Of a stretch of DNA of 13,698 bases, positions 5,574 through 13,698 are shown piece after piece. A program made the position numbers and the translations under genes. The notes beneath the pieces are model-generated. The model worked only from the letters and a program-made list of their open reading frames with translations. It ran no database searches and was not told the origin of the DNA. Source of the DNA: Patescibacteria group bacterium (GTDB taxonomy: Bacteria > Patescibacteriota > Minisyncoccia > Phycocordibacterales > JBBUBG01); assembly GCA_040384765.1 (NCBI GenBank), contig JAZKIQ010000009.1, positions 1 to 13,698 on the forward strand, given 5' to 3'. The stretch's first letter is position 1, and every line of letters starts with the position of its first letter.

Positions 5574-6638
5574 ATGAAGCAAAAACTGATTCTTCTTATT
5601 GTGTTTGTGGGAGTTTTCTTGGCTATTGGGTATTCGACTGGCATGAGGGGGGTGGCGCAAGAAGGCGTGGGTGCTTCTTCTGAGCAATCGGGCAGTGCTC
5701 GACTGTCAGATGAGGCGATTCGACACGCGTCGATTCCGAATCTCTTTTTCGGCGAACCTTTCGGAAACTACAGCGTTCTCGATGGGGGTGTTGCCTACTA
5801 TACCGAGTCTTCGAAGTCTCCCAATGGTCAAACACGTAGTGCAACAGCGACCGACTATTTTACCGCTATCGACACGAGCGTCTCGTTTGCGCATGACGAC
5901 CTCGATGGAGACGGTGACCCAGATACCGCCGTTATTATGCTGAGCCGCTCCGGAGGTACGGGTACGTTTTATGATCTCGTTGTATTCCGCAATGAGAACG
6001 GGCAGCCTCTCTTTGTGGATCGCGCAATGGTTGGAGATCGGATTGTTGTTCAATCACTTTCGATCAAAAATGGAATCGTTACTATCGACATGCTTGATCA
6101 TGGACCTGGTGAGCCGTTGGTGAGCGCAACATTTCCAAAGACCCTTCAATTTCAACTTATGAATGGAAAGCTCACTCTCATGCAGCTTGCGCAGGGAGAT
6201 GAGGTCGAGGTTACTGGTGAGCAAGCAGCCGTTGCCGCTGTCGCAAAAACATCGATTGCTGCAAAGATCGAGCAGCTTGCACCAGGCACCTTTACTCTTT
6301 CCCGAACGAACTCTTCTGTTGACGATGGTCTCCCTCACATCTACTCCCGCTATTACGGATCTAAGAAAGGATATCTCGTCGAGGTTTACCTCGATAGAGA
6401 GGGTGAATGCTACCAGGGAAAATTCACGTGTCTTATGACGAAGCTTTTCTCAGGAGAGGAGCTAAAGAAAATGTGTACATCTTACTATGATTCTGTGGAG
6501 GAATGCATCAGCACCACGACTGTTGCCACATTTGATGTAAATGAAAAAGGGATCGTGGGTAACTTTCGCATGGAAAGCGCAATCCGGAGCGATGCACAGG
6601 CGCGAGAAGAATCTCTTAGGGCAGCTGGATACTACTAG
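5574..6638 (+). CDS. Secreted or membrane-anchored hypothetical protein of 354 aa with an FG-GAP/VCBS-like calcium-binding-type motif
   Basis: It has an N-terminal hydrophobic signal/anchor, KLILLIVFVGVFLAIGYS. The motif FAHDDLDGDGDPDTAVIM...GTGTFYDLVVF resembles a single FG-GAP-type repeat. A Cys-containing C-terminal region follows. Confidence 0.55.
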   Translation: MKQKLILLIVFVGVFLAIGYSTGMRGVAQEGVGASSEQSGSARLSDEAIRHASIPNLFFGEPFGNYSVLDGGVAYYTESSKSPNGQTRSATATDYFTAIDTSVSFAHDDLDGDGDPDTAVIMLSRSGGTGTFYDLVVFRNENGQPLFVDRAMVGDRIVVQSLSIKNGIVTIDMLDHGPGEPLVSATFPKTLQFQLMNGKLTLMQLAQGDEVEVTGEQAAVAAVAKTSIAAKIEQLAPGTFTLSRTNSSVDDGLPHIYSRYYGSKKGYLVEVYLDREGECYQGKFTCLMTKLFSGEELKKMCTSYYDSVEECISTTTVATFDVNEKGIVGNFRMESAIRSDAQAREESLRAAGYY

Positions 6639-7244: not shown

Positions 7245-8581
7245 ACAAAGGTTCCAACTTCCAGCTCGTCGTTCTCGCATTTTTCGGCGTCATCCTTGTT
7301 GCGGGTGTTCTTCTTTTTGCAGGCTTTGGCGGAGGGGGCGGCCTTGGGGGTGCCGGTCGCGGTGCTACCCTCACTCTCTGGGGTACGGTGCCCGATAGTG
7401 TGATGGCCCCTCTTCTCAATACGTTTTCCCAAGAGTACCAAGATTCAATCGGACAGGTGCTCTACGAAGAGAAGCGTGCAGATAGCTTTGAGAGTGATCT
7501 GGTAAACGCGCTCGCCTCGGGCAAAGGTCCGGACATGGTGATCATCCCCCAGGGGCTTTTGGTGCGCCAGGCCGACAAACTGTTGCCTCTTTCGTATGAG
7601 CAGTTTACTCAGCGTAAATATCTCGATGCCTATACAGACGGTTCGGATATCTTTCTCACCAACAATGGCATTCTCGCGCTTCCCCTCTCGGTAGACCCGG
7701 TGGTTTTGTACTGGAATAAGCAGCTTTTCTCGGGAGCGGGCCTCACCTCTCCTCCGCGTTTTTGGGATGAGCTGCTCACGCTCCCTGAGAAGCTCGTGGT
7801 AAAAGATGTTCGTGGCACTATCTCGCAAGCGGCCATCTCTCTTGGTGGCTATCGCAATGTAACCCGTGCAAAAGAGACGCTCTCCTCGCTTTTTCTGCAG
7901 GTTGGCGACTCGATTACCGAGCCGGTCTTTAGCGAAGCGGGTCTTGGGGTGAATCCTGTGCTTGGAGATTCAGCTGCACGCGGAGCGGGTCCCGCCGAAT
8001 CAGCACTTCGCTTCTATGTACAGTTCGCAGACCCTGCAAAAGCGGTGTATAGCTGGAACAGCGCATTGCCGCAGTCGCGTGATCTCTTTGCGCGCGGGAG
8101 CTTGGCGATGTACGTGGGTGTTGCAAGCGACCTCGCAGCAATCCAAAGCGCAAATCCGCATCTCTCGTTTGACGTAGCTCCGCTTCCACAGGTGCGGCCA
8201 GTCAGCGGTGGCCAGCCAAATGCACGGGTGTACGGCAACTACGGAGCACTTGCTGTTCTTCGTGCGGGGAAAAACCCTGCGCTTTCAATGCAGGCGGCGT
8301 TTCTCCTTTCTACCACCAACTATGCGGAGGCGTATGCGCGTGCCCTCGGCTTGGCACCAGCTCGCCGCGACCTTCTTTCGCAAAATACAAGCGGCAATGC
8401 GTTGCGAGCCGTTGTCTTTAAGGCTGCTCTCAACGCTCATGGATGGCTCGATCCGTCCCCGCTCGGTACCGATGCGATATTTCGAAGCATGGTAGAATCT
8501 TTGGTATCAGGAGGTATCACTGAGCGCCAAGCGCTTTCAGAAGCTCGCGCCGATATGAGTGCCCTTGGACAACAACGATGA
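7241..8581 (+). CDS. Extracellular solute-binding protein family-1-like (MalE-like SBP fold) protein. It is membrane-tethered by an N-terminal TM helix followed by a Gly-rich linker
   Basis: A TM helix, LVVLAFFGVILVAGVLLFAGF, is followed by GGGGGLGGAG. The SBP_bac_1 hallmark stretches are present: TLTLWGTVPD, ..GKGPDMVII.., LALPLSVDPVVLYWNKQLFSGAGLTSPPRFWDELL, and MYVGVASDLAAIQSANPHLSFDVAPLP. It overlaps both neighbours by 4 nt (ATGA). Confidence 0.6.
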   Translation: MNKGSNFQLVVLAFFGVILVAGVLLFAGFGGGGGLGGAGRGATLTLWGTVPDSVMAPLLNTFSQEYQDSIGQVLYEEKRADSFESDLVNALASGKGPDMVIIPQGLLVRQADKLLPLSYEQFTQRKYLDAYTDGSDIFLTNNGILALPLSVDPVVLYWNKQLFSGAGLTSPPRFWDELLTLPEKLVVKDVRGTISQAAISLGGYRNVTRAKETLSSLFLQVGDSITEPVFSEAGLGVNPVLGDSAARGAGPAESALRFYVQFADPAKAVYSWNSALPQSRDLFARGSLAMYVGVASDLAAIQSANPHLSFDVAPLPQVRPVSGGQPNARVYGNYGALAVLRAGKNPALSMQAAFLLSTTNYAEAYARALGLAPARRDLLSQNTSGNALRAVVFKAALNAHGWLDPSPLGTDAIFRSMVESLVSGGITERQALSEARADMSALGQQR

Positions 8582-9009
8582 AAATGAGCCTGCGTTCATG
8601 TGCCGCACTATTTCTTTCCGCGCTTTTCTTGCTTGGTCCTTCGCTCGCTCTTGCCCTTGAGCCGAACGCCCCGCTCTCTGGTGCGCCGGTAAATCTGCAG
8701 GCACCATGCGGCAATAGAGCGGGAGGTACTGGAGAAACGCGAGAGTGCACCGTTGCGGACTTCATCAATTTCGTTGGGAGTATCGTTCAGTTTTTGATTT
8801 TTCAGATCTCGATCCCTCTCGCGGTGCTCGCTTTTGTGGTGCTTGGCTTCCGACTGGTGGTGAGTCAAAACAAGCCGACCGTGTATGCTGAGACCAAAAA
8901 ATATCTGATGGACCTGGTGCTCGGTATTTTTCTCGTCGTCTCTGCGTACGCGATCGTATCGTTTATATACAGCTTTGTAGCGGAGCCGTACCGCATATTT
9001 TTTAGATAA
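8578..9009 (+). CDS. Pilin-like small membrane protein, paralog 1, resembling the VirB2/TrbC and T4SS-pilin family. It has a signal peptide and two TM helices
   Basis: A signal peptide, SCAALFLSALFLLGPSLALA, is followed by two hydrophobic helices, SIVQFLIFQISIPLAVLAFVVLGF and LVLGIFLVVSAYAIVSFIY. These are separated by a short polar loop (SQNKPTVYAETKK). The mature N-region has two Cys (PCG...ECT). It is translationally coupled to the upstream SBP-like gene. Confidence 0.55.
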   Translation: MKMSLRSCAALFLSALFLLGPSLALALEPNAPLSGAPVNLQAPCGNRAGGTGETRECTVADFINFVGSIVQFLIFQISIPLAVLAFVVLGFRLVVSQNKPTVYAETKKYLMDLVLGIFLVVSAYAIVSFIYSFVAEPYRIFFR

Positions 9010-9014
9010 TAGTA

Positions 9015-9374
9015 ATGAAAAAAAAGCATCTCCATGGTTTGGCTGGGGCAGCACTCGGATACCTCTTGTTTCCAGCGATTGTGTTTGCCCAGATCGTGAA
9101 CCCATTTAAGGGCGTCGAAAACCTCACCGGTCAGAATGGGCTTCTTGAAAAGCTGATCTCTATTGCTCTCCAGATCGGTATTCCGATCATGGTGCTTATG
9201 ATCATGTGGATTGGCTTTCAGTATGTGTGGGAGGCTTCAAAGGGCAAGGCGGCAAACCTGGCAACCATCCACAAAAATTTCCAATTCACGCTTCTTGGAG
9301 CGGCGCTTCTTCTTGGCGCCTATGTGATTCTTGAGATTTTGCAGAACACCTTTAGATCGCTTCAATCACGCTAA
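9015..9374 (+). CDS. Pilin-like small membrane protein, paralog 2, resembling the VirB2/TrbC and T4SS-pilin family
   Basis: It has a signal peptide with an AxA-type cleavage site (AIVFA|QIV). The helices are IALQIGIPIMVLMIMWIGFQYVW and FTLLGAALLLGAYVILEIL, separated by the loop EASKGKAANLATIHK. It starts 5 nt after paralog 1. Confidence 0.55.
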   Translation: MKKKHLHGLAGAALGYLLFPAIVFAQIVNPFKGVENLTGQNGLLEKLISIALQIGIPIMVLMIMWIGFQYVWEASKGKAANLATIHKNFQFTLLGAALLLGAYVILEILQNTFRSLQSR

Positions 9375-9378
9375 TATC

Positions 9379-9873
9379 ATGAAAAAACTGTTTTTTATAG
9401 TAAGTCTCGTCTTCTCGTTGCTTGCTCCTACTGCCATTGCAATGCCTGTGTATGCTGCACCTGGGGATGAATTTCAGAATGATCTTTTTACCAGCCAAAA
9501 TAGCCAAGGGACATACTACAAGGAGTTTACGCTAGGCTTGCAGCAGGGTGGCGGAGGATCCGGTGCTCGGGGCACCTGTGCTAGCTCGGGTGCCCGCATA
9601 CGGGATCTCAAAGGTCTCCTCTGTTATGCGCAGGACATCATCAACTACAACATCATTCCGCTCATTTTTGCGTACGCTCTGCTGATGTTCCTGTGGGGTG
9701 TCGTCTCGTATATCCAAAAGCCAGACCTCGCCGAGCAGGCAAAGCAGAAGATTTTATATGGGGTGTTCGGGCTCGCGGCAATGGTGTCTGTATGGGGATT
9801 GGTAAACCTGGTGGTGAGAACGTTCAATCTTGATAATACGCCTATTCGCGTCCAAGATATCCAGGTTCGCTAA
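9379..9873 (+). CDS. Pilin-like small membrane protein, paralog 3. The ORF track begins at 9331, but the Met at 9379 (MKKLFFIV...) is the likely start
   Basis: It has a signal peptide, MKKLFFIVSLVFSLLAPTAIAMPVYA|AP. A mature domain follows with a Gly-rich segment and two Cys. The TM helices are IIPLIFAYALLMFLWGVVSYIQKPD and ILYGVFGLAAMVSVWGLVNLVVRTF. The motifs YI(Q/R)KPD and VWGLVNLV are shared with paralog 4 at both the protein and nucleotide level. Confidence 0.55.
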   Translation: MKKLFFIVSLVFSLLAPTAIAMPVYAAPGDEFQNDLFTSQNSQGTYYKEFTLGLQQGGGGSGARGTCASSGARIRDLKGLLCYAQDIINYNIIPLIFAYALLMFLWGVVSYIQKPDLAEQAKQKILYGVFGLAAMVSVWGLVNLVVRTFNLDNTPIRVQDIQVR

Positions 9874-9994
9874 AACATTCTAGAAGCCCCATCTTCTTTG
9901 TTGTCTTCGTCAGGAAAAACCTCAACGTACCTTTAAAAGTACGTCTCAGCTTTTCCCTCCTAGCCGCCTCGAACCTGGGGCTTCTAGAATGTTT
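9873..9994 (+). repeat. Inverted-repeat element, copy C. It has perfect 20-bp terminal inverted repeats (aaaacattctagaagcccca / tggggcttctagaatgtttt) enclosing about 82 bp
   Basis: The left arm at 9873-9892 overlaps the last base of the TAA stop of pilin paralog 3. The right arm is at 9975-9994. The interior shares ctttgttgYcttcg with copy B, and the termini share a ttctaRaa core. Confidence 0.6.
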
Positions 9995-10004
9995 TGGTTG
10001 GGAT

Positions 10005-10046
10005 GATATCCACACTCGGGCAGCCCCTTAGGGCGGCCCGAGTGGT
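10005..10046 (+). other. Compound GC-rich hairpin: a 9-bp stem, CACTCGGGC/GCCCGAGTG, encloses a nested CCC-tta-GGG mini-hairpin, and the outer stem extends imperfectly. No U-tract follows
   Basis: cactcgggc at 10012-10020 pairs with gcccgagtg at 10034-10042. The flanks tgatatc/gtatca pair with one bulge. The hairpin lies between IR element C and the pilin paralog 4 start. Confidence 0.4.
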
Positions 10047-10085
10047 ATCATAAAGTAAATCGATTAACGCATATAAGCATTTTCC

Positions 10086-10460
10086 ATGAAAAATACGCTC
10101 ATTAGGTGGCTCTCTGTTCTCGGGATATTCTTCACCCCAGCATACGCATACGCTCAGTCATCGACCGGTGCCATCGGTATTATCGACCGCGTGCAGTTCA
10201 TCATGAACACTCGTGTAGTGCCGATCATTATCGGTATTGCGCTTATCTACTTTTTGCTCGGAGTGCTTGAGTATATTCGAAAGCCAGACGGTATCATTAG
10301 CGAAACGGCTCGTTCGCGGATGGTGTACGGACTCATCGGTCTTTTTGTGATGATCTCAGTATGGGGACTCGTAAATCTTGTTGGTGATACCTTTGGTATT
10401 CAGAGTGGAGGACAGGCTCCGATCCTTCCCATCGTCAACCCCAACAAACAAGGGATATAG
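10086..10460 (+). CDS. Pilin-like small membrane protein, paralog 4
   Basis: It has a signal peptide, LSVLGIFFTPAYAYA|QSS. The TM helices are VVPIIIGIALIYFLLGVLEYIRKPD and MVYGLIGLFVMISVWGLVNLVGDTFG. It is the closest paralog of gene 3. A TATAAG box ends about 8 nt before the ATG, and there is no SD. Confidence 0.55.
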   Translation: MKNTLIRWLSVLGIFFTPAYAYAQSSTGAIGIIDRVQFIMNTRVVPIIIGIALIYFLLGVLEYIRKPDGIISETARSRMVYGLIGLFVMISVWGLVNLVGDTFGIQSGGQAPILPIVNPNKQGI

Positions 10461-10462
10461 AG

Positions 10463-10572
10463 TTCTAAAATCCTCACCTGCTTTGTTGCTTCGCTCCGGG
10501 GCTCATTCACAAGGCAAGTTCGCCTTGCTCAATCGCTCCTCACTCGCGCCGCGCATCTGAGGATTTCTAGAA
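10463..10572 (+). repeat. Inverted-repeat element, copy B. Its 14-bp terminal stem (ttctaaaatcctca/tgaggatttctagaa) has one bulged C
   Basis: It starts 3 nt after the pilin paralog 4 stop and ends 26 nt before the paralog 5 ATG. With copy A it shares ctaaaatc, cctgctttgtYgc and cgcgcatc in the same order. The 4-nt segment adjacent to the shared termini is compensatorily changed relative to A. Confidence 0.6.
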
Positions 10573-10598
10573 TCTCTCTATAAAGCAACGTTTGTCCA

Positions 10599-10841
10599 AT
10601 GGTAAACCTGATCGACCGAATTAAGGAGAATATCCTCAACCCCATCATGGGGATCATGCTCACTGTTGCGCTCGTGGTGTTCTTGATGGGGATCTACCGA
10701 CTGTTTATTGCCAAGGATAACGAGGCGTTGGGTTCCCAGGGGCTTAAAAATGTGACGTGGGGTCTTGTGGGCTTTGCGATCATCGTGTCTGCTTACGGAA
10801 TTCTCAGTTTCGTGTGTGTGACCGTGACAGCGTGCTCGTAG
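10599..10841 (+). CDS. Pilin-like small membrane protein, paralog 5. It lacks an N-terminal signal peptide and may be truncated or degenerate
   Basis: It has two TM helices, IMGIMLTVALVVFLMGIYRLFIA and VTWGLVGFAIIVSAYGILSFV. Its C-terminal VSAYxIxSF is shared with paralog 1. No signal peptide is present, and no SD sits within normal distance. Confidence 0.45.
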   Translation: MVNLIDRIKENILNPIMGIMLTVALVVFLMGIYRLFIAKDNEALGSQGLKNVTWGLVGFAIIVSAYGILSFVCVTVTACS

Positions 10842-11057: not shown

Positions 11058-11103
11058 TATTCTCTAAAAAAGAAAAAGGGCGGTCACTTGTCAGTGACCG
11101 CCC
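11058..11103 (-). terminator. Rho-independent terminator for the minus-strand operon: an 11-bp perfect stem with a 4-nt loop, then an oligo-U tract on the minus-strand transcript
   Basis: gggcggtcact at 11078-11088 pairs perfectly with agtgaccgccc at 11093-11103. On the minus strand the hairpin is followed by TTTTTCTTTTTTAGAG, the complement of plus-strand 11061-11077. It lies 22 nt past the stop at 11125. Confidence 0.7.
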
Positions 11104-11124
11104 TTTGCCGTTGCGCAAGACGCG

Positions 11125-11970
11125 CTACGGTTTGATCTCGATTTCGAGAGTGGCCTCGTTTACAACGCGGCCAGCTTTCTCTTCGAAGAGATCACCTCGG
11201 TAGAGATTGGGGCGGACGAGGCGGAGGTTTACGAACCTGCCGCCGATCGTCTTTGTGCCATCTTCCGAGATGTGCCAGGTCCAGGTACCGTGTGCAGTGC
11301 CATCCGCCCATTCGAGGACGGTGAACTCGCGCGCACGGCTTTCCGGAGTTTCGGTTGCCTTCTCCTCGAGCTTCCACAGCACTCCGGCGTCGAGCGTGAA
11401 CTCGAACCGTTCGTAGCTTGTTGGCGCTATGCCGCGACTCCTTCTGTTTGGCAGGAGCCGGGCGGTTGCGCGTCCGGTTATCTTGCCAGGAGGAGGAAGT
11501 GTTTCGGGTGGAGCGGTCTCGATCGGTGTTTCCGCAGCGCTCGCTTCCGGAGAAGCGGGAGCCGTGGAGGGCACCTCGGTCGGCGAAGGAACGCTTGCCG
11601 ATGGCGCACTTGGAGAGCTCGGAGGTGGCGTTGCTGCTACCTTCGGACTCTCGGTTGGCTTCTGAGCTGCTGGCGATGCCGAGGGCTTCGCCGGGACACG
11701 CTTTGTGTACCAGGTGGCCTTCTTGGTGACTAGCCACCTCTTGTCGATCTCCCGCCAGAGCACTGTGGCGAGAAAGATGATGAGCAGCCCCACGAGCGGC
11801 GTCTTCCATGAGAGGAGAGCCGCAAGAATGGGATACTTCTCCTTGTCCTTGACGAGCGCTTCCGGATCGAGGCGCCACGAGTCGTGGCTCTCGATCGGAC
11901 TCTCGACATGGGGAGTGTACCCCGGGCTCGGGGCAGCTGCCGCCGGGTCCGGATTACTCGTTGTCGCCAT
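11125..11970 (-). CDS. Membrane-anchored protein with a long Pro/Ser/Thr/Ala-rich low-complexity linker and a beta-rich C-terminal domain of about 110 aa. It may be an NfeD-like partner of the upstream SPFH protein. The start is trimmed from the ORF-track 12054 to the ATG at 11970
   Basis: GGAGG (plus-strand cctcc at 11976-11980) lies 5 nt before the ATG at 11970-11968. There is one TM helix, YPILAALLSWKTPLVGLLIIFLATVLW. An approximately 85-aa linker follows, PAKPSASPAAQKPTESPKVAATPPPSSPSAPSASVPSPTEVPSTAPASPEASAAETP.... The C-terminal domain runs ERFEFTLDAGVLWKLEE...GRVVNEATLEIEIKP. The gene overlaps the upstream gene by 17 nt. Confidence 0.55.
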   Translation of the reverse strand: MATTSNPDPAAAAPSPGYTPHVESPIESHDSWRLDPEALVKDKEKYPILAALLSWKTPLVGLLIIFLATVLWREIDKRWLVTKKATWYTKRVPAKPSASPAAQKPTESPKVAATPPPSSPSAPSASVPSPTEVPSTAPASPEASAAETPIETAPPETLPPPGKITGRATARLLPNRRSRGIAPTSYERFEFTLDAGVLWKLEEKATETPESRAREFTVLEWADGTAHGTWTWHISEDGTKTIGGRFVNLRLVRPNLYRGDLFEEKAGRVVNEATLEIEIKP

Positions 11971-13480
11971 TCTGTCCTCCGTTCTGTTTCCGTTCCTTGT
12001 TGCGCTGCTGGCGGAGCTGCTTCTTGTTTGGCTTCCTGCCGGACCGCTTCCCATCTCGCGATGGAGGGCGATCCGCGCCTTCTTCGCCCATTGCAGCCTG
12101 CGCTCCTGCGAGCCCCGCCGTCAGGTCCTTCTGCTCCTCGGGAACAGTAGGACCGGCGTTGAAGCTTACATCGCGCACGGATGCGGTGATCCCGGTATCG
12201 GGATCTTCGGCAGCCGAAAGCTCGTATGCTTTCGTCGGGTCTACACCCTGTGCGACCAGCTCTTTGGCACGCGTGTTGGTGCCTTCGCGCTGGCGTTTGA
12301 GCTGCTTCTGCTGTGCCTCCTCTTGTGCTTCCTTGGCACGAGTAGCTTGCACTTCAGGAGAGGGCAGCACCGACTTGAGGGTGATCGAGTTCTCTTCCTT
12401 GGCGGATGAGAACTCGACCCCGTTCTCACGGATGAGCTCGTTGATCTTTTCTGCGGTTTTGCGCAGGAGATCAATGCACTTCGGTTCGCGCTTCACGATC
12501 TCGTCTTCGGTGAGCTTCTTGAAGCCTTCGCGGAGATTCTCGGTGAGAATTCCGCGGATGCGTTCGTGAAGCTCCTTGTACGGGATCTTGAGCACCTTGC
12601 GCCCATCCTCGACGTGAGTGAGGACGAATGCTTCGACCGTCAGGTAGAGGCCGTCGGCGCACTGAAACTTCTCAGACTTCGCCTGGCCCTTCTTCCCCTT
12701 TTCTTTTTCTGCGGGTGGGGGTTCTTCCCAGCTGACGTGTGTGATGTGCGACTTGGTGTTGACCACCACTACTCTAGTTGCCCCGTAGGGCAGCCAGAAG
12801 TAGAAGTACACGTGGAGGGGGAGTGCTGTTCCGAAGATCACTTCTCCGAGGAAGTAGTCTTCGGGTACGAAGCCGATGCTGCGGATTCCATACAGGATTC
12901 CGCCCCACCACACAAGTGCCCACACGATCCATGAAAACAGATCGAGCAGGAGCACGGGGTGATCGGAGAGGAAGCGGTTGGGGAGTGTTTCCCCGAGGAA
13001 CGAAGCGAGCCACGGCACCGTACAGGTGAGGTAGAGCACGAAGAGCGGCCACGTCCAGAGGAATCCGAAGATCTTCATCTTCGGATTCCAGTTGTGACCT
13101 CTCTCTGAGAGTGCCCAGAGCCACGCTGTTGTTCCGGCAAGGATGCCGATCGCAACGACGGTAGCTTCGAGCTGGAGTCCGGAGAGGCTGCACCAGAGTA
13201 TCGCCGCGATCGCGGCGGACAGGAAGAGCACTGCTCCCACCATCCGGACGATCGTTGCAATCGGCCCATCCTGCTTGGCTTCCGCTTCCCACCACGCCTT
13301 GAGGCGAGTGAAAAATCCTACCGAAGGCGGGGTGGCTGGCGTCGGTGCGTTCGGGTCCGTAGGTGGCAGGCTCGGATTTCTCCAAGATCGCCACACTTCG
13401 TGGATCTTCCACAGAGTCTGGCCCACGATCGCGATTGCCGCGATCGCAAACAGCACATCGAGAATTTTTTCCTTCTCCAA
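11954..13480 (-). CDS. Polytopic membrane protein fused to an SPFH/band-7 (stomatin/HflK-like) domain, with a basic disordered C-terminal tail. It uses a TTG start
   Basis: GGGAGG lies 7 nt upstream of TTG at 13480. The N-terminal ~250 aa contain about 6 Trp-rich hydrophobic helices. The region FQCADGLYLTVEAFVLTHVEDGRKVLKIPY...ELHERIRGILTENLREGF...NGVEFSSAKEENSITLKSVLPSPEVQATRAKEAQEEAQQKQ matches the SPFH core, including the conserved I.dI.pP.EV..A...A.RE..A segment. The tail is Lys/Arg/Gln-rich. Confidence 0.55.
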   Translation of the reverse strand: MEKEKILDVLFAIAAIAIVGQTLWKIHEVWRSWRNPSLPPTDPNAPTPATPPSVGFFTRLKAWWEAEAKQDGPIATIVRMVGAVLFLSAAIAAILWCSLSGLQLEATVVAIGILAGTTAWLWALSERGHNWNPKMKIFGFLWTWPLFVLYLTCTVPWLASFLGETLPNRFLSDHPVLLLDLFSWIVWALVWWGGILYGIRSIGFVPEDYFLGEVIFGTALPLHVYFYFWLPYGATRVVVVNTKSHITHVSWEEPPPAEKEKGKKGQAKSEKFQCADGLYLTVEAFVLTHVEDGRKVLKIPYKELHERIRGILTENLREGFKKLTEDEIVKREPKCIDLLRKTAEKINELIRENGVEFSSAKEENSITLKSVLPSPEVQATRAKEAQEEAQQKQLKRQREGTNTRAKELVAQGVDPTKAYELSAAEDPDTGITASVRDVSFNAGPTVPEEQKDLTAGLAGAQAAMGEEGADRPPSRDGKRSGRKPNKKQLRQQRNKERKQNGGQNGDNE

Positions 13481-13492
13481 CGGAGAACCTCC

Positions 13493-13508
13493 CTGTCTGC
13501 GTATGCAG
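13493..13508 (-). promoter_or_regulatory. Perfect 6-bp stem with a 4-nt loop (GTCTGC gtat GCAGAC) in the 5' UTR, immediately upstream of the SD of the SPFH-fusion gene
   Basis: gtctgcgtatgcagac at 13493-13508 is palindromic. It lies between the predicted TSS near 13577 and the GGGAGG SD. Confidence 0.3.
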
Positions 13509-13583
13509 ACGGTAACGGGAACATTGAAACGGTTTGCTTCTCTATTCGCTAGCTCACAAAGAGCTCTAAAAATTGCCGATTAT

Positions 13584-13611
13584 AATTATATCAGGAAATA
13601 GGCTTTTGTCA
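13584..13611 (-). promoter_or_regulatory. Near-consensus sigma70-type promoter on the minus strand: TTGACA, 16-nt spacer, TATAAT
   Basis: The minus strand reads ttgacaaaagcctatttcctgatataattataat. TTGACA is the complement of 13606-13611 and TATAAT the complement of 13584-13589. The leader to the TTG start at 13480 is about 97 nt. Confidence 0.5.
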
Positions 13612-13698
13612 ATGGCAAAGAGGGCGAAAATACGTTGAGGAATATGGGGGCGGGAGAGGAGTGGGTCCGAGGACATGGTCCCAGATAATTCGTTCGCC

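Follow-up and report, generated by a model that had tools for sequence, protein, structure and literature searches.

The protein considered here appears, with somewhat better than an even chance, to be a genuine, extremely diverged stomatin-type SPFH protein whose membrane anchor has been lengthened at its N-terminus, and which probably forms a ring scaffold with the product of its operon partner. Its gene lies in a stretch of 13,698 nucleotides (the window) from an uncultured bacterium of the Patescibacteria (Paceibacteria, CPR). An earlier note, made from this sequence, had described an unusual fusion of a polytopic, Trp-rich membrane domain with an SPFH core. The five-helix SPFH architecture is genuine and atypical; on the comparisons below, the change to the anchor is best described as the extension of a plastic region, and fusion with a known polytopic domain is not borne out.

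The open reading frame is real: the NCBI product is identical over 508 aa and bears the name 'SPFH domain-containing protein [Patescibacteria group bacterium]'. The gene and the signals ahead of it are as follows.

11954..13480, minus strand: SPFH/Band_7 gene (ORF), 508 aa, TTG start, stop codon at 11954-11956
13481..13584, minus strand: 5' leader of ~100 nt, including the Shine-Dalgarno sequence GGAGG at 13488-13492
13585..13612, minus strand: sigma-70-type promoter, TTGACA, 16 nt, TATAAT, with TG ahead of the -10

The strong promoter, Shine-Dalgarno sequence and TTG start that had been claimed for this gene all hold: the promoter matches the consensus at 12/12 positions, where shuffles of the region yield a chance expectation of 0.7 such sites, and GGAGG stands 7 nt 5' of the TTG. 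The structured 5' UTR proposed along with them is weak at best, as the leader folds with z = -2.0 relative to shuffles and 9 of 200 shuffles fold equally well; an Rfam search of the leader matched no family, and on these two results a riboswitch or other structured leader was rejected. The two-gene block that begins here is indeed richer in GC than the pilin region next to it: 58.5-61.7% (GC3 0.68-0.71) against 47.5-51% in the five pilin genes, of which four have GC3 of 0.54-0.56 and the other, pil5, 0.70.

The SPFH assignment proceeds from a direct family match to a comparison of orthologues found by position. The match and the four orthologues named individually below are:

12281..12802, minus strand: SPFH (Band_7) domain match (Pfam PF01145), aa 227-400, with a charged insert at aa ~250-273
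Locus L048, 16279-17388: SPFH orthologue
Locus L065, 17400-18350: SPFH orthologue
Locus L080, 19033-19974: SPFH orthologue
Locus L066, 8617-9798: SPFH orthologue

The Band_7 model (PF01145) scores 32.9 bits on the window protein (E 8.4e-8), above the curated gathering cut-off of 23.6, and covers profile positions 26-174 of 176; the SPFH core noticed in the sequence thus passes the HMM search suggested for it. The peptides that had been quoted can all be located: FGFLWTWPLFVLYLTCTVPWLASF spans aa 138-161, LFSWIVWALVWWGGILYGI aa 181-199 and NGVEF...AQEEAQ aa 353-390. Searched alone against the PDB, the single sequence finds no SPFH chain. A profile made from alignment A1, which comprises the window protein and seven syntenic orthologues, finds stomatin (2.5e-18), HflK (3.5e-17), QmcA (6e-13) and the PH1511 stomatin (1e-12), and matches prohibitin and erlin as well. 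The L048 orthologue scores 57 bits on Band_7 and is itself matched by aa 266-408 of the window protein in a phmmer search of a small locus database (E 8.7e-7). These results support a bona fide SPFH protein behind a polytopic, Trp-rich membrane region.

Other classes were considered. A Pfam scan of the window protein, with E up to 10, gave no family besides Band_7, neither Flot nor any pilin family; the flotillin subfamily, which has a C-terminal Flot domain, was rejected for this reason. Similarity of aa 311-403 to the nucleotide-binding domain of ABCB1 (PDB, E 0.002) was judged to be chance: LSGGQ aligns to FSSAKEE, there are no Walker motifs and Pfam returns no ABC family.

Beyond the syntenic loci the protein stands by itself. 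A word-indexed search of 5.8 billion proteins, with full-length and tail-less queries, returned only the self-match; exhaustive phmmer against 1.84 billion representative proteins likewise found no relative besides the protein itself. Neither an exact-protein contig look-up nor a metagenome scan with the SPFH protein gave a match, and a metagenome scan with the neighboring binding protein recovered only distant loci (28-47% identity) that are devoid of SPFH genes. A database search with the A1 profile added only two unrelated Band_7 proteins of 283 aa. These have an N-terminal helix followed by Band_7 and come without source annotation; their sequences look HflC-like.

The anchor is where this protein departs from its family. 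Helices were called by Kyte-Doolittle hydropathy in 19-residue windows, and the region divides as follows.

13079..13480, minus strand: N-terminal extension, aa 1-134, containing TM1-TM3 and a loop, absent from the orthologues (hydropathy, alignment A1)
13409-13465, minus strand: TM1, hydropathy peak 2.04
13193-13261, minus strand: TM2, hydropathy peak 2.39
13106-13174, minus strand: TM3, hydropathy peak 1.74
12881..13078, minus strand: ancestral hairpin anchor, aa 135-200 (aligned with the orthologues)
13004-13072, minus strand: TM4, hydropathy peak 1.67
12884-12955, minus strand: TM5, hydropathy peak 1.70

There are five helices, at aa 6-24, 74-96, 103-125, 137-159 and 176-199, with peaks of 1.67-2.39. 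The original description of about six was right that the region is polytopic and wrong in the count: the sixth hydrophobic stretch, at aa ~210-236, aligns with the first SPFH-domain strands of the orthologues. Its remark on Trp content was sound, with 17 W in aa 1-250 (6.8%) and 1 in aa 251-508. TM5 directly precedes the SPFH domain and constitutes the N-terminal hydrophobic anchor that SPFH membership requires; the classic description asks for at least one hydrophobic stretch (PMC2636767), and the anchors described in PMC2636767, PMC12624060 and PMC12344292 are a single N-terminal helix, a hairpin that inserts halfway, or such a stretch. Calling the anchor unusual was justified: the 19 syntenic orthologues, of 313-472 aa, are predicted to have 0, 1, 2 or 3 helices, and none has five.

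Orientation can be predicted from charge. Ten K+R lie in loop 1, loop 3 and the segment after TM5, against three in the remaining loops, and the positive-inside rule, by itself, predicts an N-out, C-in topology with a cytoplasmic SPFH domain. With that topology everything from the SPFH domain onward, through the long helix and putative cap strand to the basic tail, would be cytoplasmic. The single-helix orthologues, which have KKRKR or KSKRH after the helix, are predicted by the same rule to hold their SPFH domains on the same side.

Alignment A1 locates what is new in this anchor. TM4-TM5 match the two-helix hairpin of the closest orthologues (L048, L065, L080), which leaves only aa 1-134 as the added part. 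Between TM1 and TM2 runs a Pro-rich loop, predicted to be cytoplasmic and to include an amphipathic helix; the three-helix orthologue L066 also has a Pro-rich loop after its first helix. Taken with the orthologues, the window protein looks like the extreme of an anchor region whose helix count varies. For aa 1-134 themselves no homologue was found in Pfam, NCBIfam, PHROGs, PADLOC or 1.8 billion representative proteins. Comparison with the N-terminus of L066 was non-significant, as were a check of the window protein for an internally duplicated hairpin and comparisons of aa 1-134 with an HMM of the four-helix partner class and with each partner singly; because all of these are non-significant, transfer of helices from the partner to the SPFH protein is without sequence support.

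These observations bear on a more literal reading of the fusion, in which the helices are an autonomous module (a channel, transporter, sensor or enzyme) under the control, in cis, of the SPFH ring. Such an arrangement is conceivable, in that regulation in trans by SPFH proteins is known for channels and proteases (PMC12344292, PMC12624060), and the membrane region is long (~200 aa) and unusually rich in Trp. We regard it as quite improbable: the region matches no library family and has no homologue among the 1.8 billion representatives, the ancestral anchor accounts for two of the five helices, and the added part amounts to only three helices, split by a low-complexity Pro-rich loop.

A different objection holds that the five-helix form is an artefact of annotation or assembly, the real start being Met133 or Met135 and the real anchor a two-helix hairpin; the 134 codons upstream would then be untranslated leader, or a separate small membrane ORF fused to the gene through a frameshift, or the product of chimeric assembly in the metagenome-assembled genome (MAG). 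The N-termini of the orthologues do align at about residue 135, where the first ATG of L048 also lines up, and the five-helix form is supported by one MAG contig, with no second copy in any search made; MAG contigs can contain errors. Yet the TTG at 13480 is the start that the consensus promoter and GGAGG are positioned to serve, and no Shine-Dalgarno sequence is evident ahead of Met133/135. Codon-position GC of aa 1-134 is like that of the rest of the gene (GC3 0.69, against 0.71 for the whole), and the 134 codons stay open in only 0.8% of shuffles; they encode three strongly hydrophobic helices with a charge distribution that fits the topology downstream. L066, moreover, has an N-terminal helix and Pro-rich loop ahead of its anchor. 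An artefact is accordingly thought unlikely, and the lengthened anchor remains the preferred reading.

The part of the protein beyond the SPFH core comprises:

12212..12358, minus strand: predicted long helix, aa 375-423, candidate wall or coiled-coil, beginning at the conserved SPEVQATRAKEAQEEAQ motif
12152..12193, minus strand: candidate C-terminal cap strand, aa 430-443, GITASVRDVSFNAG (alignment A1)
11957..12145, minus strand: basic, low-complexity C-terminal tail, aa 446-508 (sequence)

Single-sequence AF2 gave a poor model of the whole protein (mean pLDDT 51, falling to 29-39 in the beta part, aa 200-280), the best part of which is this helical region: helices at 375-410 and 415-423, with pLDDT 66-82. 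The A1 profile alignment continues through aa 375-423 onto the stomatin helix. The GITASVRDVSFNAG segment falls in the same A1 block as a hydrophobic-strand-plus-Gly motif of the orthologues, which makes aa 430-443 a candidate for the C-terminal cap strand. A long predicted helix followed by a strand-plus-Gly motif aligned with orthologues would be a layout competent to form a cage. The tail is long and basic, as had been noticed; AF2 pLDDT in the region aa 440-480 is about 32-39, and the L048 orthologue has a comparable Gly/Arg-rich tail.

The SPFH gene is followed by a second gene, and a terminator closes the operon.

11125..11970, minus strand: partner gene (ORF), 281 aa from ATG 11970, or 309 aa from ATG 12054
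11075..11106, minus strand: intrinsic terminator closing the two-gene operon, 14-bp stem with 8 GC pairs, then a T-run; it starts 19 nt past the partner stop

In all 20 operons compared (the window and 19 related), a partner gene lies directly against the SPFH gene. In the window partner one predicted TM helix leads through a Pro/Ser/Ala-rich linker to a C-terminal domain of ~110 aa, predicted to be rich in beta structure; 8 K+R occur in the 25 aa after the helix, and hydropathy with this charge bias predicts a cytoplasmic C-terminus. Helix number differs among partners, from this single one to between 1 and 8 in relatives. Single-sequence AF2 of the C-terminal domain gives all-beta secondary structure at low confidence (pLDDT 49), and Foldseek with that model found nothing in the PDB with E <= 0.001 (TM <= 0.41), and so recovered no OB fold of the kind that NfeD domains have. 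An HMM of seven other partner C-domains did not reach significance on the window partner (E 0.26). SPFH genes commonly occur in pairs with NfeD genes, which encode proteins of about three hydrophobic stretches and an all-beta domain (PMC2636767, PMC13086221). Going by the low-confidence model, the layout of the partner resembles a short NfeD: membrane helix or helices, linker, and small all-beta cytoplasmic domain. Membership of the NfeD family itself was rejected, there being no PF01957 match in the window partner (E up to 10) nor in 15 partners from related operons.

Position supplies a second line of evidence. Orthologues were sought in 80 GyrA-anchored loci from related Paceibacteria, where a conserved block consists of gyrA, a methyltransferase gene, a binding-protein gene and pilin-like genes, followed by the convergent operon for the SPFH protein and its small membrane partner. 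The convergent SPFH gene is found in 19 of the 80 loci, 4.2-7.9 kb past gyrA, and in 17 of the 41 loci that have at least 8 kb of flank. The window gene shares with these its position convergent to the pilin cluster, its abutting partner, its Band_7 domain, the hairpin aligned to TM4-TM5 and, in L048, the basic/Gly-rich tail; the orthologues differ in being shorter, with fewer helices and only 14-23% identity to the window protein. Across the block, identity falls from 61-75% for GyrA and 33-44% for the binding protein to at most 23% for SPFH, and is undetectable for the partner.

Such divergence suggests another account, that the two-gene block is a fast-evolving accessory cassette, for phage defense or the interface between episymbiont and host, and no housekeeping organizer. 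Only those 17 of 41 comparable loci have the block, no other part of the syntenic region has diverged nearly as far, its GC3 exceeds that of most neighboring genes, and it adjoins pilin-like surface genes. Against this, neither PADLOC nor PHROGs yields a match, and a defense or phage origin was rejected on that result; many species carry the block at one and the same chromosomal position, which points to vertical inheritance and away from mobility; effector domains of the nuclease, toxin or NTPase type are absent; and the SPFH domain is predicted to be cytoplasmic. This account is given a small probability.

Among characterized systems, the best solved matches of the A1 profile are stomatins (human STOM 16-mer, PDB 9wmj/9oh9; Pyrococcus PH1511, PDB 3bk6). 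The parts come in the same order: hydrophobic anchor, SPFH domain, a common motif, 'P..(v/l)q.a.a.eA', that opens the long helix (predicted in the window protein), and a C-terminal strand, for which the window protein has a candidate. The stomatin SPFH domain is cytoplasmic (PMC12344292), as is predicted for the window protein. Stomatin, however, is palmitoylated and has two short helices half-inserted in the bilayer (PMC12344292), whereas the window protein has five full-length Trp-rich helices, three of them in the 134-aa extension; its SPFH domain also contains a charged insert, and its basic tail runs to 63 aa. The SPFH-NfeD pair QmcA-YbbJ of E. coli (PDB 8z5g), which builds a cage of 26 heterodimers (PMC13086221), offers a likeness at the level of the operon: an SPFH protein is encoded together with a membrane protein of helices and a small soluble domain (beta-rich by prediction in the window partner), and both products are predicted to face the cytoplasm. 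The pairs differ in that the window partner lacks the NfeD (PF01957) match.

HflK and HflC also share with the window protein an N-terminal membrane anchor and an SPFH domain, and HflK is the second-best solved match. These form a heterodimeric pair with a single helix each, facing the periplasm and caging FtsH (PMC12624060), and one could propose an outward-facing cage of this kind, modulating a membrane protease such as FtsH. The profile matches HflK nearly as well as stomatin (3.5e-17 versus 2.5e-18), and the only database proteins it found look HflC-like. The proposal seems very improbable, given that the positive-inside rule predicts a cytoplasmic SPFH domain for both the window protein and its single-helix orthologues, that the operon has a single SPFH gene with no K/C paralogue pair, and that the window contains no ftsH gene.

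The preferred reading, the lengthened stomatin-type anchor, allows a mechanism to be sketched by analogy. The strong promoter would drive a bicistronic operon for the SPFH protein and its single-pass membrane partner, an operon whose genomic position, convergent to a T4SS-type pilin gene cluster, is conserved. An ancestral anchor of one or two helices would have been lengthened by ~134 aa, three helices and a Pro-rich loop, to five. SPFH proteins form membrane-abutting rings (PMC12624060, PMC12344292). From the solved SPFH complexes, a ring or dome at the inner face of the membrane, fencing off a membrane patch, is the most likely assembly; the protein is thus likely a cytoplasmic stomatin-type ring scaffold working with its NfeD-like partner, the cytoplasmic domain of which probably assists assembly. 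Each subunit would contribute a Trp-rich five-helix bundle to a thick protein palisade, which could fill most of the enclosed patch. A more speculative reading, improbable on present evidence, is that the hypervariable SPFH-plus-partner operon, which many Paceibacteria keep next to their T4SS-type pilin cluster, specifies a membrane platform dedicated to the pilus or host contact of these episymbionts, with the five-helix anchor turning a ring that usually encloses lipid into a largely protein-filled plug or a large oligomeric pore. In favor of that reading, a published regression relating subunit number to CC1 length (PMC12624060) gives, for ~36 aa of helix, a rough figure of ~16-17 subunits, and hence a similarly rough ~80-85 SPFH helices, plus those of the partner, inside a stomatin-like ring of inner diameter ~12 nm (PMC12344292). 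Predicted helices are also divided very unequally between SPFH protein and partner in different species, 5 and 1 in the window, 1 and 8 in locus L010, and 2 and 5 in L017, which hints that the intramembrane part may itself be the functional, evolving element.

The rings formed by stomatin, prohibitin, flotillin, HflK/C and erlin are cages that fence a membrane patch with minimal anchors. With five helices per subunit, if that is true, the enclosed content would be mostly protein, with less lipid and fewer clients, and such a member would test how far ring geometry tolerates bulky anchors. CPR bacteria have small genomes and limited lipid biosynthesis, and their membrane organization is poorly understood; a pilin-linked SPFH-plus-partner operon in many Paceibacteria supplies a concrete candidate membrane platform. 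The value of the present example is limited because the five-helix form occurs in one MAG, is without homologues and has poor AF2 models (pLDDT 51 for the SPFH protein, 49 for the partner domain).

The 508-aa protein encoded in the window (11954..13480, minus strand, TTG start) belongs to the stomatin type of SPFH proteins, has an anchor expanded to five helices, and shares an operon with an NfeD-like partner; the operon is linked to a Paceibacteria pilin cluster. Its translation is identical to the NCBI entry 'MAG: SPFH domain-containing protein [Patescibacteria group bacterium]', located on a single 14,897-bp contig, and contains every peptide quoted in the earlier note. The Band_7 domain proposed there is found: PF01145 matches aa 227-400 (E 8.4e-8; 32.9 bits against a gathering score of 23.6), spanning profile positions 26-174 of 176. 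The protein matches nothing in NCBIfam, PADLOC or PHROGs.

At the sequence level the protein is an orphan. It matched nothing but itself in word-indexed searches of 5.8 billion proteins or in exhaustive phmmer against 1.84 billion cluster representatives; a metagenome scan gave zero matches; and no SPFH chain came up in a single-sequence PDB search, whose one, weak match was the ABCB1 nucleotide-binding domain. That similarity (aa 311-403; window 12272-12550, minus strand; phmmer E 0.002-0.007, ~18-20 bits) was judged to be chance, since conservation does not extend to the signature motif and Pfam finds no ABC family. Because the protein is an orphan, the neighboring gyrA gene was used as the anchor for finding related loci: 80 loci from GTDB species representatives (top GyrA identity 75%), whose six-frame ORFs were screened with phmmer, hmmsearch and jackhmmer, run locally. 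In 19 of the 80, an SPFH gene lies in synteny on the minus strand, 4.2-7.9 kb past gyrA; among the 41 loci whose flank reaches 8 kb or more, 17 have it. The conserved order is:

gyrA
methyltransferase gene, 176 aa
solute-binding-like protein gene, ~440 aa
four to six TrbC/T4SS-pilin-like genes
convergent SPFH gene, then a small membrane partner

In a Pfam scan, seven syntenic SPFH genes score 20-57 bits for Band_7, six above the 23.6-bit cut-off and one (at locus L022) below it, at 19.9 bits. A profile built from the alignment of the window protein with seven syntenic orthologues matches solved SPFH structures in the PDB: stomatin (2.5e-18), HflK (3.5e-17), QmcA (6e-13) and PH1511 (1e-12), as well as prohibitin and erlin. 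By these profile matches SPFH membership is secure, and the family is, on sequence, closest to the stomatin type.

The window pilin cluster (8578-10841, plus strand) consists of five tandem small genes for 2-3-helix proteins of the TrbC/VirB2 or T4SS_pilin families (PF04956, PF18895), three above the Pfam cut-off and two weak matches. The inspected gene maps of related Paceibacteria loci (L001, L048, L065 and L080 included) repeat the succession of gyrA, methyltransferase, solute-binding-like protein and 4-6 pilin paralogues. In most related loci gyrA and the methyltransferase gene are adjacent, unlike in the window; there, the two are separated by an ORF of 354 aa (5574-6638, plus strand) that has a hydrophobic segment near its N-terminus, no significant Pfam match (Dna2_Rift, E 0.0087, is below cut-off) and none in PHROGs.

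The earlier note described a fusion of a polytopic domain of roughly six Trp-rich helices to the SPFH domain. The Trp-richness holds (17 Trp in residues 1-250, one in the remainder), as does the polytopic N-terminal region, but the count by Kyte-Doolittle hydropathy (19-residue windows, segments above 1.6) is five:

aa 6-24, TM1, hydropathy peak 2.04
aa 74-96, TM2, peak 2.39
aa 103-125, TM3, peak 1.74
aa 137-159, TM4, peak 1.67
aa 176-199, TM5, peak 1.70

The supposed sixth (aa ~210-236, LGEVIFGTALPLHVYFYFWLPYG) pairs in the alignment with the first SPFH-domain strands of the orthologues, and is no further transmembrane helix. The orthologues are 313-472 aa long, with 0-3 predicted N-terminal helices; TM4-TM5 match the two-helix hairpin of those at L048, L065 and L080, which leaves aa 1-134 as what the window protein has in addition: TM1, then a Pro-rich loop of 49 aa that includes an amphipathic helix, then TM2 and TM3. 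The three-helix orthologue at L066 also has a helix, then a Pro/Ala-rich loop, ahead of its hairpin; similarity between the two extensions is not detectable. Residues 1-134 resemble neither the protein's own hairpin nor the partner membrane domains, and match nothing in Pfam, NCBIfam, PADLOC or PHROGs. Thus the N-terminus is real and atypical but joins no two known modules, and is better described, from these comparisons, as an elaboration of an evolutionarily plastic anchor.

Several features, all from one MAG contig, support translation of aa 1-134 together with the SPFH part. GC3 in aa 1-134 (0.69) is close to that of the SPFH part and of the tail (0.71 each), with 0.79 in aa 135-200; when the first 134 codons are shuffled, the frame stays stop-free in only 0.8% of cases. 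Promoter and Shine-Dalgarno are positioned for the TTG start, and no Shine-Dalgarno is evident ahead of Met133/135. The promoter is strong, as had been claimed: TTGACA-16-TATAAT, matched 12/12, with TG ahead of the -10 (13612..13585, minus strand), where shuffles are expected to yield only 0.7 such sites; GGAGG stands 7 nt 5' of the TTG. A 14-bp GC-rich hairpin with a T-run (11106..11075) directly follows the downstream ORF; with the promoter and Shine-Dalgarno, it delimits a two-gene operon. The 'structured' 5' UTR survives in weaker form: the ~100-nt leader folds marginally better than shuffles (z -2.0; 9/200 equal it), and matches no Rfam family. The earlier observation is thus confirmed with corrections (minus strand, five helices, weak leader structure), and its interpretation as a whole is partly supported. 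The two-gene block is indeed GC-richer than the pilin genes (58.5-61.7% against 47.5-51%), and its GC3 (11125-13480) is 0.68-0.71, against 0.48-0.62 in the other genes measured, pil5 (0.70) excepted; expression level, origin or amino-acid bias may be the cause.

All 20 operons have a gene for a membrane protein that directly adjoins the SPFH stop codon or overlaps it. The window partner (281 aa if started at ATG 11970, 309 aa if at ATG 12054) comprises a single helix, a linker rich in Pro, Ser and Ala, and a C-terminal domain of ~110 aa, for which AF2 models eight strands with low confidence (pLDDT 49). Partners in relatives each have a small C-terminal domain behind 1-8 helices; a common class has four, and others are:

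L010:17092-18288, minus strand, eight helices
L017:15990-17018, minus strand, five helices
L051:17760-18581, minus strand, three helices
L033:16976-19036, minus strand, five helices

SPFH anchors have 0-5 predicted helices, and the split between SPFH protein and partner is 5+1 in the window, 1+8 at L010 and 2+5 at L017; among partner comparisons there is no sequence evidence of helix transfer between the two genes. Short NfeD proteins likewise consist of helices, a linker and an all-beta soluble domain (here a low-confidence prediction), encoded beside an SPFH gene (PMC2636767, PMC13086221). The NfeD profile matches neither the window partner nor the partners of the related operons scanned; similarity of the window partner to other partners is not significant (E 0.26); and a fold search with its model gave no match at E <= 0.001. 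We therefore call it NfeD-like in architecture only. At L065 the SPFH gene is followed by tandem partner-gene paralogues (16251-16787 and 16858-17391, minus strand; mutual jackhmmer E ~1e-66 to 1e-74). The 686-aa product of the gene that follows the SPFH gene at L033 has a C-terminal stretch, …AACESGFNHW…GAMGAFQIMP…, which by eye resembles the lytic transglycosylase catalytic motif (SLT/VirB1-like).

Charge suggests an N-out, C-in topology, which would place the SPFH domain in the cytoplasm: K+R total 10 across loop 1, loop 3 and the stretch past TM5, but 3 across the N-tail, loop 2 and loop 4. The partner's C-domain would also be cytoplasmic, with 8 K+R within 25 residues past its helix; single-helix orthologues carry KKRKR or KSKRH past theirs, consistent with a cytoplasmic SPFH domain. 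Beyond the SPFH core a helix is predicted (aa 375-410 and 415-423) that starts at the conserved motif SPEVQATRAKEAQEEAQ and is the best part of the AF2 model; GITASVRDVSFNAG, which follows it, aligns with the strand-plus-Gly motif of the orthologues. Solved cages have the order SPFH1/2, wall helix, cap helix, C-terminal strand (PMC12344292, PMC12624060), and the order predicted here from low-confidence model and alignment is alike. A regression from the literature (subunits = 0.1782 x CC1 length + 10.22; PMC12624060) would give about 16-17 subunits, stomatin-like, for a ~36-aa helix, an extrapolation from helix limits of low confidence. The stomatin 16-mer has an inner diameter of ~11.8 nm (PMC12344292), enclosing a calculated ~109 nm2; at least 80 helices at roughly 1 nm2 apiece would take up most of this. 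A ring of this kind, should it form, would then enclose mostly protein.

The neighborhood is unevenly conserved. Identities of the window proteins to one common set of relatives are:

GyrA, 61-75%
methyltransferase, 41-49%
binding protein, 33-44%
pilins, 24-42%
SPFH protein, at most 23%, that of L048 alone detectable by BLASTP
partner, not detectable

The closest locus by GyrA (L001, 75%) has no SPFH operon; plus-strand genes follow its pilins. Divergence and absence from L001 are compatible with an accessory, fast-evolving module, and a conflict or host-interaction role is for that reason kept as a rival. The operon yields no defense-system (PADLOC) or phage-family (PHROGs) match. The five-helix form itself is a singleton, with neither conservation nor a structural model good enough to use. 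More promising as a lead is what the family shows as a whole: its position is conserved, its divergence is extreme, and the membrane helices are split variably between SPFH protein and partner. The genes past the pilins of L001 (9374-14416, plus strand) encode a six-helix protein of 919 aa and two more of 514 and 240 aa, which may be additional T4SS-like components.
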